The translations under genes were made by a program, and so were the position numbers. From NCBI GenBank assembly GCA_041576165.1, contig JBFGLM010000028.1, positions 1 to 61,933 on the forward strand: a stretch of DNA of 61,933 nt, given 5' to 3'. Below, in pieces: positions 47,439 through 56,141 of this stretch (position 1 is its first letter; each line of letters opens with the position of its first letter). The notes beneath the pieces were generated by a model. It saw only the letters and a list, made by a program, of their open reading frames with translations. It made no database searches and was not told the origin of the DNA. The stretch is from Acidimicrobiia bacterium (GTDB lineage: Bacteria; Actinomycetota; Acidimicrobiia; Spongiisociales; Spongiisociaceae).

Positions 47439-47747
47439 TCATCCGGCGCTCTTCACCTCTACCTCGATGACATGGGTCGGCCCGACCAGGATCTCCGCGG
47501 AATGCGTCTCTGCCTCAACCCAGACGGCTTCGCCCGGTCTGCGATCGATCACGGATTCATCGCCCGTCTCGCCGGTCGATTTGATCCGATATCCGTTGAG
47601 CGCGATCACCAGCCGTGCGGGATGTGAATGGGTGGGTAGATGCTGGCCGGCGAGATTCCTCACCTCGAGCACTCGAACGTGCTGGTTTTCGAACACCACG
47701 CGGTGTCCATCCGGATCCACTTCAGCCGAATCAGGAATCACGCTCAT
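47439..47747 (-). CDS. Cupin domain protein
   Basis: VFENQHVRVLE..HSHP..PGEAVW..THS; GGAGG RBS. Confidence 0.85.
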   Translation of the reverse strand: MSVIPDSAEVDPDGHRVVFENQHVRVLEVRNLAGQHLPTHSHPARLVIALNGYRIKSTGETGDESVIDRRPGEAVWVEAETHSAEILVGPTHVIEVEVKSAG

Positions 47748-47840
47748 GGTTCCTCCGTTCCTGTCGTCGGTGTCGCCATACCGACGAATGAACCGTGACC
47801 GCGCCCAACGCCGGATCGCTGCACTCGCCGCTGCGCCGGT

Positions 47841-49229
47841 TCAAACCCCGCTCCGCCAGCCTCCGGCGTACGCTTCCCGTGCATCCTTCGAGTACGGGGT
47901 CGGGGCGACCCGAACCTGGATCTCGGTCTGGCGATGTCGTTCGACGGTCGTCTTGCCCGTGCCGCCGTCTTCTTCACCCCAGATCAGCGTCAGCACATCC
48001 CCCACCTCGATATCCGGATCCACGGTTCCGAGCGACAGGAACGCCCGGTCGTTGAAGGTGTAACCGCTGAACATAGAAAAACCGACCAGCCGGTCGTCCT
48101 TCATCACCGCGTCGTAGCTGGCGGACGTGTAGTTCGAGAGCGGCAGGTCGATGTATTTGTAGTTCTCTCCGGGATTGTCGAACAACGACGCCATCACCCT
48201 CGTCACATCGTCCAGGTTCCATTCGAACGTGACCTTCTTGCGTTGCGGCTCGTCGGCCATCGCCTCCAGCGCGTCACGACCGATGAAGTCGTGATCGAAC
48301 TTGATGTAGAACCCGTATCCGAGCGCGTGGGGGGTGAGGTAGTAGTCCTCGATGTCGTCCGAGACGAAGCTGCCCCCGATCGAACCGCTGGCCTCGTAGC
48401 TGGCGGACGGGAGCCACTCCCGGTAGGCCTTCATCTCGTCGCCGGTGTACACGGCCGGCAGCGGTGAGGGGATCCACCCCGACTCCAGAGTGTTGGTGGC
48501 GTACGCCCGTGATCCCACCTGTACCAGCCCGAACTCTTCCCCGGCCTCGAGGATTGCGTTGCGCACCTCGTCGATCTCGTCGTACGGCCCCCAGATCTCA
48601 ACGCCCGGCTCCCCCGCCATGCCGTGCCGCAGCGCCGGCACCTCACGGCCCGCCACCCTCATCGTGCCGATGTTGAAGAATTTGATGTCGCCCAGGGGAC
48701 CGCCGTTCAGCTTCTCGATGAGCTGCGCGGCGTTCGGTCCTTGGATCTGAAACCGGTAGTGGCGACGTAGAACTGGGTGGCGACCGGGCCGGGAGGGAGA
48801 GCGGTCGTCTCGCTCGAACGTGAGGTCATGGTCGCCGGTCTCGCAGTGGAACTGGACCCAGTTCACTGAGGGGACCCGCCCGACCATGTTGAAGGTGTCC
48901 TCCGCAGGTCGGAACAGGATCACGTCGCCGATGACGTGGCCGGAGTAGCTGCACGGCACGAAATGCTTGGCCTTGGTGGTCGGGAAGTCGGCAAAGCTGT
49001 TGATGGCGAGGCTCGACAGCAGGTCAGATGCGCCGGGACCCTCCACCGTCAGTTCGGCCATGTGGTGGGATTGGTCAAAGAGGACCGCGCGCTCACGCCA
49101 CGCCCGCTGCTCATCCCGCCAGTTGGTGAATTCGGGCGGAACCACGGGGTACACATAGGCACCGATCTTCGAATTGCGCAGCATCTCGACGGGATTGCCA
49201 GCGGCCCGCAGAACCTGTTCGAGACTCAT
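47841..49229 (-). CDS. ligM: THF-dependent vanillate/3-O-methylgallate O-demethylase
   Basis: GcvT family; N-terminus [21 protein letters not shown] is LigM-type; [11 protein letters not shown]. Confidence 0.88.
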
Positions 49230-49352
49230 GGTGCTCCTCCTCGCCGGAGTGTCAGTCGGGTGGCCGATGGCACCCGTTGGGTTTCAGAATCGCCCTTCCG
49301 ACCCTACTCGCCGTTTTCGCCGCCGCCTCCGGCGCAGACGGGTTTGCGAGCT

Positions 49353-53672: not shown

Positions 53673-53712
53673 GCCGAGTGAGACGCCGAGCTGTGCGCAT
53701 TGGGAGCCTGCC

Positions 53713-54675
53713 GTGAGTGGAAATCCGCGGGTGCGTGACCTCGCCCACGTGGGATCAGTCGAGCTATTCACCCCGACGTTCGAAGACAGCCGGGCCTTCT
53801 TCATCGATCTGATGGCGATGGATGAGGTAGGCCAGCGGGGTGATTCGGTCTACCTGCACGCCTGGGACGACTACGAACGCTTCACGATCAAGCTGACAGC
53901 CAGCTCCACTTCAGGGATCGGCCGGACCTACCTGCGAGCAGCCGGCCCCGATGCGCTGGAGCGGCGGGTCGACGCTTTGGGGAAGTATGGGAGTCCCGGG
54001 CGCTGGGTTGAGGACGAACTGGGACTGGGACCGATCTATCTCACCGAAGATCCGGACGGCCACGAAATCGGCCTTTATTGGGAATCCGAACGCTACGAAG
54101 CGCCGCCCCACCTCGTCCCGTCATTGAAGAATCAGGCGGCCCGGTTTCCGGGCCGGGGGGCCAACATTCGGCGGCTCGACCACGTGAACTACCTGGCCGT
54201 CGACGTGCCGGCCAACGACCAGTTCCTGACCGAAGCGCTCGGTGCGATGAAGACCGAACAGATCGTCACCGACGAGGGTGTCCCGGCGGCCACCTGGTGC
54301 ACGATCAGCGACAAGACCTATGACCTCGTACACACGGTCGACGCCACCGGCACAGCCGGTCGCCTCCACCACATCGCGCTCGCCACCGACACTCGGGAGG
54401 ACATCTTGCGGGCGGCAGACGTGTGCTTGGAGAACGGCATCCACATCGAAACCGGGCCTCACAAACACGCGATCCAACAGACGTTCTTCCTCTATGTGTG
54501 GGAGCCGGGAGGCAACCGAATCGAGTTGTGTAATGCCGGCGCCCGCCTGATGCTGGCTCCGGACTGGCCGACGGTTTCGTGGACACCTGAGGAACGGGCC
54601 AAGGGACAGGCCTGGGGACTTCAGACCATCGCTACGTTCCACACCCACGGCACGCCGCCGGTTCCGGTGGAGTGA
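53713..54675 (+). CDS. VOC-family extradiol (catechol 2,3-) dioxygenase
   Basis: RRLDHVN, GRLHHIA, GPHKHAIQQTFFLYVWEPGGNRIE. Confidence 0.92.
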   Translation: MSGNPRVRDLAHVGSVELFTPTFEDSRAFFIDLMAMDEVGQRGDSVYLHAWDDYERFTIKLTASSTSGIGRTYLRAAGPDALERRVDALGKYGSPGRWVEDELGLGPIYLTEDPDGHEIGLYWESERYEAPPHLVPSLKNQAARFPGRGANIRRLDHVNYLAVDVPANDQFLTEALGAMKTEQIVTDEGVPAATWCTISDKTYDLVHTVDATGTAGRLHHIALATDTREDILRAADVCLENGIHIETGPHKHAIQQTFFLYVWEPGGNRIELCNAGARLMLAPDWPTVSWTPEERAKGQAWGLQTIATFHTHGTPPVPVE

Positions 54676-54767
54676 GACCGGGGGGCGCCACGGCACGTTT
54701 TCTAGACTCAGCCACGGGTTCCGGGTGCGCCAGGCCCGCAACCGGCATCTGAACAGGAGGCACCTCG

Positions 54768-56141
54768 ATGACCGCCAGCCTCGAAGACAGGCTCAACGCC
54801 GCCGGGAATCCGGTCGGCATGCTGCGCAACGCCCAGGTCGGACCCAACGTCTATCCAGGCGTGCCGGCCGAGTTCACCAACTGGCGCGACGAACAAGCCG
54901 CCTGGCAGGAGACATGCATCCTGTTCGATCTGTCCTACCACATGGTCGACCTGGCGCTGGAAGGCCCCGACGCACTGGCGCTGTTGAGCCATGTCGGATA
55001 CAACACCTTCGAGGGCTTCCAAGTGGATCGGGCCAAACATCTGGCGCCGTGCAGTCCCGCCGGGCACGTGATCGGCGACGTCATCCTCTTCTATCTTGCC
55101 CCCGGGAAGTTCGAACTGGTGGGCCGGGTGCCGTGCCTCAACTGGATCATGTATCAGGCCGAAGCCGGCGGATACGACGTCGAGCACGAGCTCGATCAAC
55201 GAACCGCGCTGCGAGAAGACCAATCCCGCCGCAGGTCGTATCGCTTTCAGGTGCAGGGGCCCAACGCCATGCAGACGATGGAGGCGGCGCTCGGCGAACC
55301 GCCGCCCGACGTGCGCTTCTTCAACATGACGACCCTGACAATCGCCGGAAGGCCGGTACGGGCTTTGCGCCACGGCATGGCGGGACAGCCCGGGTTCGAG
55401 CTGTTCGGACCGTGGGACGACAAACCGGCCGTGCAGGAGGCCCTGATCAGCGCCGGGGAGCAGTTCGGTCTACACCGCGTGGGCGCCCGAGCCTATTCGT
55501 CCAACACCCTCGAGTCGGGCTGGATCCCCTCCCCGTTGCCCGCGATATACACCGGTGAGCCCATGAAGGCCTATCGGGAGTGGTTGCCGGCCGACGGCTA
55601 TGAGGGGTCGGCGTCGCTGGGTGGTAGCTTCTACGACCAGAACATCGAGGCGTACTACTTCACGCCCTGGGATCTGGGGTATGGCGACTTCGTCAAGTTC
55701 GACCACGATTTCATCGGCCGGGAGGCGCTCGTGGAGATGGCCAAGGCCCCACCCCGGACCAAGGTGACGCTGGAACTCGACAACGCCGACGTCCTACGGG
55801 CCATCGGGTCGCAGTTGGAGCACGGCGACCGGGCCAAGTTCATCGAGTTTCCCTCGGCCGTGTACGCCATGCACCCCTACGACGCAGTGCTGTCCGGCGA
55901 CGAGACGGTGGGGATTTCGACCTGGATCGGATACAGCTCCAACGAACGGAGGATGCTGACTCTGGCGGTGCTGGACAACGAGTACGCCTCGCCGGGGACC
56001 GAGGTCACGCTGTTATGGGGGGAGCCCGACGGCGGCACTGCCAAGAGCAACGTCGAGCGGCACGCGCAGATGGAGATCCGGGCAACGGTGGCGCCGGTCC
56101 CCTACACACGGGTTGCCCGGGAGTCGTACCGGCGGGGTTGA
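54768..56141 (+). CDS. desA: THF-dependent syringate O-demethylase-like protein
   Basis: GcvT family; N-terminus GPNVYPGVPAEFTNWR..SYHM is DesA-type. Confidence 0.82.
   Translation: MTASLEDRLNAAGNPVGMLRNAQVGPNVYPGVPAEFTNWRDEQAAWQETCILFDLSYHMVDLALEGPDALALLSHVGYNTFEGFQVDRAKHLAPCSPAGHVIGDVILFYLAPGKFELVGRVPCLNWIMYQAEAGGYDVEHELDQRTALREDQSRRRSYRFQVQGPNAMQTMEAALGEPPPDVRFFNMTTLTIAGRPVRALRHGMAGQPGFELFGPWDDKPAVQEALISAGEQFGLHRVGARAYSSNTLESGWIPSPLPAIYTGEPMKAYREWLPADGYEGSASLGGSFYDQNIEAYYFTPWDLGYGDFVKFDHDFIGREALVEMAKAPPRTKVTLELDNADVLRAIGSQLEHGDRAKFIEFPSAVYAMHPYDAVLSGDETVGISTWIGYSSNERRMLTLAVLDNEYASPGTEVTLLWGEPDGGTAKSNVERHAQMEIRATVAPVPYTRVARESYRRG

Follow-up and report, generated by a model that had tools for sequence, protein, structure and literature searches.

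A VOC-fold candidate gallate dioxygenase encoded with gal-type and O-demethylase genes in an Acidimicrobiia bacterium

We analyzed a 61,933-nucleotide stretch of DNA (hereafter the window; positions 1 to 61,933 of contig JBFGLM010000028.1 in the Acidimicrobiia assembly GCA_041576165.1, forward strand) and within it a nine-gene cluster, 47439-56141, that encodes a VOC-fold (type I) extradiol dioxygenase beside predicted enzymes of syringate and gallate catabolism. A first-pass annotation had read this cluster as the divergent operons galD-ligM-cupin and galB-ligK-oxidoreductase-PBP fold-VOC dioxygenase-desA, and had proposed that the VOC protein is a gallate dioxygenase non-homologous to GalA and DesB. 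We assigned the genes using Pfam and NCBIfam profile searches with curated cut-offs, sequence matches to the PDB and a reading of start codons and ribosome-binding sites, and recovered all nine at or near the places given to them in that annotation. They form two divergent operons, with the galD and galB starts ~60 bp apart. The leftward operon runs from galD/ligU through ligM to a gene for a 102-residue cupin, and the rightward operon from galB through ligK, a DUF1932 oxidoreductase gene, the gene for a PBP-fold protein and the VOC dioxygenase gene to desA. A promoter and terminator scan of positions 47000-56700 returned no sigma-70-like consensus. The features of the cluster are:

47439..47747, minus strand: small cupin of 102 residues, last gene of the leftward operon (PDB 9u8n, 'cupin type-2 domain-containing protein', E 4e-4)
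47841..49229, minus strand: ligM-like tetrahydrofolate-dependent vanillate/3-O-methylgallate O-demethylase (NF047885, 718.9 bits against a cut-off of 580; PF01571)
49353..50426, minus strand: galD/ligU 4-oxalomesaconate tautomerase/isomerase (NF033377, 475.1 bits against 440; top PDB match LigU, 6p3j, 396 bits)
50427..50486, no strand: divergent intergenic region between galD and galB, ~60 bp (from the start-codon and ribosome-binding-site reading)
50487 (refined start)..51215, plus strand: galB, PIG-L-fold 4-oxalomesaconate (4-carboxy-2-hydroxymuconate) hydratase (PF02585; PDB GalB, 5cgz)
51252..51950, plus strand: ligK/galC, 4-carboxy-4-hydroxy-2-oxoadipate aldolase/oxaloacetate decarboxylase (NF006731, 305.2 bits against 179; PF03737)
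51952..52740, plus strand: NAD(P)-binding oxidoreductase with NAD_binding_2 and DUF1932 domains (PF03446, PF09130)
52794 (refined start)..53672, plus strand: NMT1/THI5-like PBP-fold protein of 292 residues, predicted to be cytoplasmic (weak PF09084 match)
53713..54675, plus strand: two-domain VOC (type I) extradiol dioxygenase of the Tyr203 clade, 320 residues (TIGR03211, 279.3 bits; metal ligands; synteny)
54768..56141, plus strand: desA-like tetrahydrofolate-dependent syringate O-demethylase (NF047633, 802.7 bits against a cut-off of 800)

The cluster encodes a gal-type lower pathway. GalD and GalC/LigK score over their curated cut-offs, and GalB is placed by a solved relative, 5cgz ('4-oxalmesaconate hydratase'), which it matches along its full length with 269.7 bits (the second-best PDB match scores 32.7 bits). 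With solved or curated relatives behind them, the assignments of GalD, GalB and LigK are strong predictions. Two GcvT-family proteins exceed the DesA and LigM equivalog cut-offs, the former marginally, as expected for O-demethylation of the type found in Sphingobium sp. SYK-6. The DesA-like protein also passes the LigM model (583.3 against 580 bits) and is 54% identical to its LigM-like paralogue; related O-demethylases are described as using other aryl ethers than these substrates (PMC5547118). The DUF1932 oxidoreductase gene has a refined ATG start at 51952, two bases past the ligK stop, and the PDB relatives of its product are only functionally unassigned structural-genomics entries (3qsg, 4ezb and 1i36). 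The galD, galB, ligK, ligM, desA and VOC genes occur in one copy each in the genome, all inside the cluster.

The VOC protein has the two-domain VOC fold, and PF00903 matches its C-terminal domain with 55.5 bits. It aligns with positions 2-303 of the 303 in the catechol 2,3-dioxygenase equivalog model TIGR03211, where its score is under the cut-off of 320.2, so that it falls outside this equivalog. It matches neither PF02900 nor NF009904 and thus does not belong to the LigB fold. A Foldseek search ranked AphC and 3lm4 first (E 1e-26); it used an AlphaFold model that was built from 15 sequences, has a mean predicted local distance difference test score of 65.9 with a low-confidence C-terminal active-site half, and served for the fold search only. 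The nearest relatives of the protein come from Acidimicrobiia metagenome-assembled genomes (84-85% identity), and its closest VOC paralogues in the same genome are 29% identical.

Residue equivalences were counted in a HMMER alignment to homoprotocatechuate 2,3-dioxygenase (HPCD, 1f1x). Residues H157, H220 and E271 correspond to the HPCD metal ligands H155, H214 and E267, a 2-His-1-carboxylate site that is invariant in 81 of 81 orthologues, and N159, W195, H252 and Y261 correspond to HPCD N157, W192, H248 and Y257. His200 of HPCD is a second-sphere catalytic histidine, thought to be essential in type I enzymes. The VOC protein lacks this histidine and has Y203 in its place, as do all 81 orthologues, Bradyrhizobium included; the equivalent residue is also Tyr in the Agrobacterium, Thermus oshimai and Pantoea proteins and in PDB 9WGJ. 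In a set of 23 full-length proteins chosen to represent the wider family, the same position holds His in 18, Tyr in 2 and another residue in 3. All 81 orthologues share K201, T247, H250, K251, R278, R295 and Q299, residues that differ from those of most His-type representatives: R278, for instance, is Tyr in most His-type relatives, and K251 is the least clade-specific, Lys being common in His-type proteins as well. K201, H250, K251, R278, R295 and Q299 probably bind the carboxylate and the extra hydroxyl.

The first-pass annotation had seen neither a LigB-fold gene nor ligC or ligI in the window, and our profile searches likewise found no LigB-fold, Amidohydro_2 or Gfo/Idh/MocA gene there. 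Its statement that the VOC gene is the only ring-cleavage gene of the cluster also holds, with the addition that pcaHG (29571-30871) and a homogentisate dioxygenase gene lie elsewhere in the window. The genome-wide search for a GalA-, DesB- or LigAB-type enzyme that it called for returned one remote LigB-fold gene. This gene, on contig 15, is the sole PF02900 match of the genome (59.5 bits) and reaches 63.4 bits on the GalA model NF009904, where the cut-off is 412. Its neighbors encode S9 peptidases, esterases, a dienelactone hydrolase, an amidohydrolase and an F420-dependent oxidoreductase, and no gal or lig genes were found around it.

The same searches were applied to genomes that carry a cluster of gal and VOC genes. 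None of 42 such genomes has a protein that passes the GalA cut-off, and a LigAB-grade protein (~315 bits) is present in two of the 42. At E <= 1e-5, PF02900 has no match in 5 of 41 cluster-bearing genomes; some LigB-fold protein is present in the other 36, which makes PF02900 alone uninformative, and most LigB matches outside the window genome are short DODA-like or remote class III proteins with at most 92 bits on the GalA model. PcaH is over its cut-off in 38 of the 42 genomes, and the window itself carries pcaHG; protocatechuate therefore has its own ortho route.

The linkage of the VOC gene with gal genes recurs widely. We scanned one genome per species and examined the best 80 of more than 598 relatives, counting neighbors within 6 kb; the VOC orthologues at these 80 loci are 60-85% identical. 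GalD, LigK or GalB is encoded near the VOC gene at 54 of the 80 loci, GalD at most 150 bp away on the same strand at 39, and GalD, LigK and a hydratase together at 31. By neighbor, the counts are LigK 48, a GntR/FCD regulator 43, GalD 41, GalB 34, the DUF1932 oxidoreductase 27, an MFS transporter 15, an NMT1-type ABC binding protein 14, an Amidohydro_2 protein (LigJ-like, where GalB is absent) 11, a tannase (PF07519, 411.6 bits) 9 and an Abhydrolase_3 esterase 5, each out of 80. A DUF1932 gene is missing within 6 kb at 18 of the 31 loci with a full lower pathway, and the recurring pathway genes at those 18 therefore amount to a four-enzyme equivalent of galABCD. The linkage is found in at least 20 named genera, including Streptomyces, Amycolatopsis, Actinoplanes, Actinomadura, Nonomuraea, Dactylosporangium, Agromyces, Pseudonocardia, Cryptosporangium and Kineosporia. 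Recurrence across dozens of genera places it far beyond chance.

In a quick maximum-likelihood tree, the 81 sequences stood apart from the His-type outgroups, and gal genes accompany the VOC gene in 49 of the 56 rows that, besides the window, make up a 57-row, mainly actinobacterial clade. A family-level sample, which holds the Amycolatopsis, Pseudonocardia and Actinophytocola loci, had a match at E <= 1e-120 in 58 of 401 genomes. An even phylum sample had a match at E <= 1e-80 in 11 of 400, with GalD and an adjacent VOC gene in four genomes that all belong to one genus, and this sample therefore gives no independent test of co-occurrence.

The first-pass annotation had named conservation of the VOC, galBCD and desA synteny as a check; the synteny proved conserved for galB, galC/ligK and galD, and is rare for the O-demethylase genes, which are linked to the VOC gene at one other of the 80 loci. 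At that locus (Acidimicrobiales, L046, 8484-11900), ligM (878 bits) is followed 6 bp on by the VOC gene and then by an MTHFR-like gene (metF), with galD and ligK near. O-demethylation and the VOC dioxygenase are thus linked a second time, in a different arrangement. Direct linkage of the VOC dioxygenase with both DesA and LigM is new in the window.

Relatives of the VOC protein are also encoded in 80 plasmid records. On pAt of Agrobacterium tumefaciens strain 186, from walnut, a tannase gene comes after galB-VOC-galC-galD (L086, 7231-12602); on a plasmid of A. vitis CG78, from grapevine, a carboxylesterase gene comes after these four (L087, 7230-12306). On both plasmids, which are conjugative, the VOC gene thus lies inside the gal operon, and divergent ABC transporter genes, a DUF1932 gene and a LysR regulator gene lie upstream. 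Walnut and grapevine are tannin-rich hosts. A Pantoea sp. At-9b plasmid has its gene among transporter genes. Thermus oshimai JL-2 pTHEOS01 (L099, 5342-13355) has the order VOC-GntR-DUF6282-GalB-LigK-oxidoreductase, with a divergent aldehyde dehydrogenase gene and a 4-hydroxybenzoate 3-monooxygenase gene close by, and its VOC protein carries the same Tyr203 residue signature; the oxidoreductase is annotated as 'NAD(P)-dependent oxidoreductase'. DUF6282 also lies upstream of GalB at the actinobacterial and Dormibacterota loci L011, L021, L023 and L036 (gene family 24). Eighteen more neighbor proteins, 10 of them from four loci with the DUF6282-type arrangement (L021, L023, L024 and L036), included no aldehyde dehydrogenase and no hydroxylase.

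From these data we propose that the VOC enzyme probably opens gallate to 4-oxalomesaconate, as a non-homologous substitute for GalA/DesB, an activity that we take to be EC 1.13.11.57. The LigB search and the gal synteny support this part of the first-pass annotation; restriction of the enzyme to gallate is left open by the Thermus oshimai setting. The cluster most likely provides, on its own, every step that leads from syringate to pyruvate and oxaloacetate. Going by the curated family models, DesA would remove the first methyl group, converting syringate to 3-O-methylgallate, and LigM the second, yielding gallate. Gene context suggests that the VOC dioxygenase would then bind gallate in its catecholate form to an Fe(II) or Mn(II) center at H157, H220 and E271 and cut the ring beside the third hydroxyl, giving the tricarboxylate 4-oxalomesaconate with no semialdehyde. 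Type I enzymes usually cleave 3-substituted catechols proximally. GalD/LigU would isomerize 4-oxalomesaconate, GalB hydrate the product, and LigK split it to pyruvate and oxaloacetate; protocatechuate derived from vanillate by LigM would most likely pass to ortho-cleavage by the pcaHG product ~17 kb away. The genes that feed the route vary by lineage, with tannase and esterases in Micromonosporaceae and Agrobacterium, and DesA and LigM here. The tannase and the DesA-LigM pair converge on gallate as their common product, and both the tannase linkage and the flanking of the VOC gene by desA and ligM therefore favor gallate as the substrate.

Several observations weigh against a gallate dioxygenase at this locus. 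Loss of the catalytic histidine could mean low or changed activity. No gal neighbors were found at 26 of the 80 loci; some of these are short contigs, and L003 and L005, both from Acidimicrobiia, are among them. Also among the 26, a 17-row Bradyrhizobium-type subclade (L052-L079, ~60% identical; 16 rows from Bradyrhizobium or other Pseudomonadota and one titled Frankia sp. RB7) has no gal genes within 6 kb, its neighbors being HerA-like ATPase, CMD-family, MgtC and molybdenum-hydroxylase/cytochrome c genes. The linkage with desA or ligM is rare, L046 lacks desA, and the genome of L046 holds a LigAB-grade enzyme. The DesA-like protein clears the NF047633 cut-off by 2.7 bits only. The draft genome (5.1 Mb, 161 contigs, 96.5% complete, 7.5% contamination) leaves room for a GalA on missing DNA. 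The DUF1932 oxidoreductase recurs across phyla, and a pure gallate route needs no redox step. Finally, the context in Thermus oshimai points to a protocatechuate-type substrate. These last points would fit an enzyme that is mainly a protocatechuate 4,5-type or 3-O-methylgallate dioxygenase, analogous to LigAB or DesZ, with gallate as a minor substrate and with the DUF1932 protein oxidizing the semialdehyde as LigC does. We consider such an enzyme unlikely. It would agree with the Thermus oshimai genes and residue signature, with the 27 loci that have a DUF1932 gene near the VOC gene, with ligM immediately ahead of the VOC gene and no desA at L046, and with desA, whose product is 3-O-methylgallate, as the next gene downstream in the window; LigM, by the name of its family model, also yields protocatechuate from vanillate. 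However, the cluster has no aldehyde dehydrogenase, DUF6282 or Amidohydro_2 (LigI-type) gene, so that a semialdehyde or pyrone has no identified way to 4-oxalomesaconate, and if the DUF1932 protein were a LigC-like dehydrogenase serving a protocatechuate branch, the cluster would be short of a pyrone hydrolase. In addition, 18 loci combine the VOC gene with GalB or Amidohydro_2, LigK and GalD and have no DUF1932 gene within 6 kb, the tannase linkage favors gallate, Pca genes serve protocatechuate in 38 of 42 genomes, the window included, and LigM is on hand to convert 3-O-methylgallate to gallate.

Gallate might instead be opened by the LigB-fold protein of contig 15, an unassembled GalA or a loosely specific PcaHG, leaving the VOC enzyme to remove pyrogallol or other catechols. 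The genome does hold one LigB-fold gene, its assembly is incomplete, 36 of 41 cluster-bearing genomes encode a LigB-fold protein of some kind, and several clade members stand alone without gal genes. Nonetheless, we regard this arrangement as highly improbable: the contig 15 gene falls far below the GalA cut-off and sits among peptidase, esterase and F420-oxidoreductase genes, the LigB matches in other genomes are mostly DODA-like or remote, PF02900 finds nothing at E <= 1e-5 in five genomes that carry the full operon, and the tight linkage of the VOC and gal genes, repeatedly rearranged and yet kept, would go without explanation. We give still less credence to an ordinary catechol or alkylcatechol 2,3-dioxygenase that lies beside gal genes by chance. 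Relatives carry the database name 'catechol 2,3-dioxygenase', the top curated model is TIGR03211, and the nearest structures with known substrates are AphC (4-ethylcatechol) and the catechol and homoprotocatechuate 2,3-dioxygenases. However, the score on that model is below its cut-off, a Tyr stands where the catalytic His is expected, no xyl-type meta-pathway genes (hydrolase, dehydrogenase, hydratase-aldolase) lie nearby, and gal linkage is seen at 54 of 80 loci.

A wider form of the proposal can also be drawn. Like LigAB, the clade may accept carboxylated catechols generally. The Tyr203 clade could be a separate, horizontally spread VOC family for gallate and protocatechuate, convergent with the LigB fold, which dispenses with the second-sphere histidine (with Tyr or the third hydroxyl of the substrate performing proton transfer) and whose DUF1932 partner performs an unrecognized step. 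We hold this combined proposal to be possible and put it forward tentatively, with doubt.

The organization of the cluster resembles two known systems in different respects. The gal cluster of Pseudomonas putida KT2440, reportedly the subject of Nogales et al. 2005 and 2011, encodes GalA, GalD, GalB and GalC. The window shares with it a GalD-type tautomerase, a GalB hydratase, a GalC/LigK aldolase and a separate pcaHG protocatechuate route. In contrast, the ring opener is VOC-fold type I here and LigB-fold GalA there, no GalR, GalT or GalP was seen in the window, and the window cluster has in addition two O-demethylases, the DUF1932 oxidoreductase, the PBP-fold protein and the cupin. The syringate and vanillate catabolism of Sphingobium sp. 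SYK-6 (PMC6888825; bioRxiv 10.1101/2020.07.27.224295) provides the likeness on the upper side, with DesA-like and LigM-like demethylases, a LigU-type isomerase, a LigK aldolase and a flow from syringate through 3-O-methylgallate and gallate to 4-oxalomesaconate. Unlike SYK-6, the window cluster has no DesB, DesZ, LigAB, LigC, LigI or LigJ and has a GalB-type hydratase, and its genes, which do not include metF or ligH, all lie in a single 8.7-kb cluster.

A partial precedent, the only one we found, comes from Rhodococcus opacus PD630, as described in the available portion of PMC8442903. This strain, which lacks DesB and LigAB, can grow on gallate, and deletion of the gene for AHK27425.1, a putative type I catechol 2,3-dioxygenase, ends gallate consumption (PMC8442903). 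When produced in E. coli, AHK27425.1 removed gallate and was also active on 4-methylcatechol; the authors did not determine the product but suggested that 2,3- or 5,6-cleavage yields a semialdehyde, and that portion of the paper draws no tie to GalB, GalC or GalD. The ligands H158, H221 and E272 of AHK27425.1, as given there, equal the window VOC numbering plus one. Their 63/51 spacing fits the Tyr203 clade but also fits His-type relatives, so that this protein is a possible member of the clade; in the Rhodococcus AphC type the spacing is 62/51. Five Rhodococcus plasmid matches in PLSDB fall outside the clade, and the four listed are AphC-type with 35-37% identity. A full-text search of journals other than subscription journals found no paper tying a VOC or type I dioxygenase to GalB, GalC, GalD or 4-oxalomesaconate.

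Compared with the studied type I enzymes HPCD (1f1x, 1q0c), XylE (1mpy) and AphC (7q2a, 3lm4), the window VOC protein has the same two-domain VOC fold and 2-His-1-carboxylate site and keeps the equivalents of Tyr257, His248, Asn157 and Trp192. Its identity to AphC is 33-35% in structural alignments, and its match to HPCD is far weaker (~95 bits). Unlike these enzymes, it has Tyr203 for His200 and its own K201, T247, H250, R278, R295 and Q299. The closest solved sequence is PDB 9WGJ ('Catechol 1,2-dioxygenase', 323 residues; 342.7 bits), in which the catalytic-His position is Tyr too; a full-text search found no paper carrying this PDB code.

Two further products of the cluster stand outside the proposed route. 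The likely start of the PBP-fold gene at 52794 leaves its product without a signal peptide, its neighbors in a protein atlas are clusters of ~294-residue proteins labeled 'ABC substrate-binding protein family', and a sequence search of the PDB gave no match. A cytoplasmic PBP-fold protein of this kind is confined to the window locus (0 of the 80 related loci). At other loci, secreted NMT1-type binding proteins accompany ABC permeases; the PBP-fold protein of the window has no such company and may act as an enzyme or bind a ligand in the cytoplasm. The cupin gene is single-copy in the genome and has a good ribosome-binding site ahead of its ATG at 47747, and a Pfam search with its product gave nothing at 1e-3.

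Elsewhere in the same window, ~17-24 kb from the cluster and outside it, lie the pca genes and the homogentisate dioxygenase gene:

27977-29571, minus strand: CoA-transferase subunits (pcaIJ)
29571-30149, minus strand: pcaG
30149-30871, minus strand: pcaH (TIGR02422, 305 bits)
30868-31251, minus strand: CMD-family pcaC-like gene
36489-37994, plus strand: homogentisate 1,2-dioxygenase

The large and 2Fe-2S subunits of a molybdenum hydroxylase are encoded between the pca genes and the cluster (41818-44561, minus strand), and the stretch from the pca genes to the cluster looks like an aromatic-catabolism neighborhood. At 44989-46449 on the plus strand, an alpha/beta hydrolase is fused to an adenylate/guanylate cyclase domain; its top NCBIfam model is LipJ, at 302 bits far under the cut-off of 800. 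A small open reading frame at 2353-2628 (plus strand) encodes a ParE-toxin domain (33 bits). In the rest of the genome we found no tannase, and there is one weak MTHFR match away from the cluster; neither metF nor ligH is in the cluster. Amidohydro_2 has 24 matches in the genome, none of them on the cluster contig. Nine of the 24 lie inside ~50 kb of contig 10 (~21800-70600), which points to a large complement of enzymes that resemble aromatic decarboxylases or hydratases.

Breakdown of tannin and hardwood lignin yields gallate and syringate as major products, and to our knowledge the ring-opening step of gallate is known only from proteobacterial LigB-fold enzymes. If the VOC protein is a gallate dioxygenase as we propose, a pathway gap would be filled in many Actinomycetota; the range of the clade also covers Alphaproteobacteria, Thermus and plant-associated Agrobacterium plasmids. 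The name 'catechol 2,3-dioxygenase', widespread in annotations, would be corrected, and estimates of lignin and tannin turnover from metagenomes would improve. The genes would provide a compact four-gene module for gallate, or a six-gene module from syringate to central metabolism, for lignin valorization in Gram-positive hosts, and the accepted mechanism of extradiol cleavage could be tested on a natural Tyr-for-His exchange.

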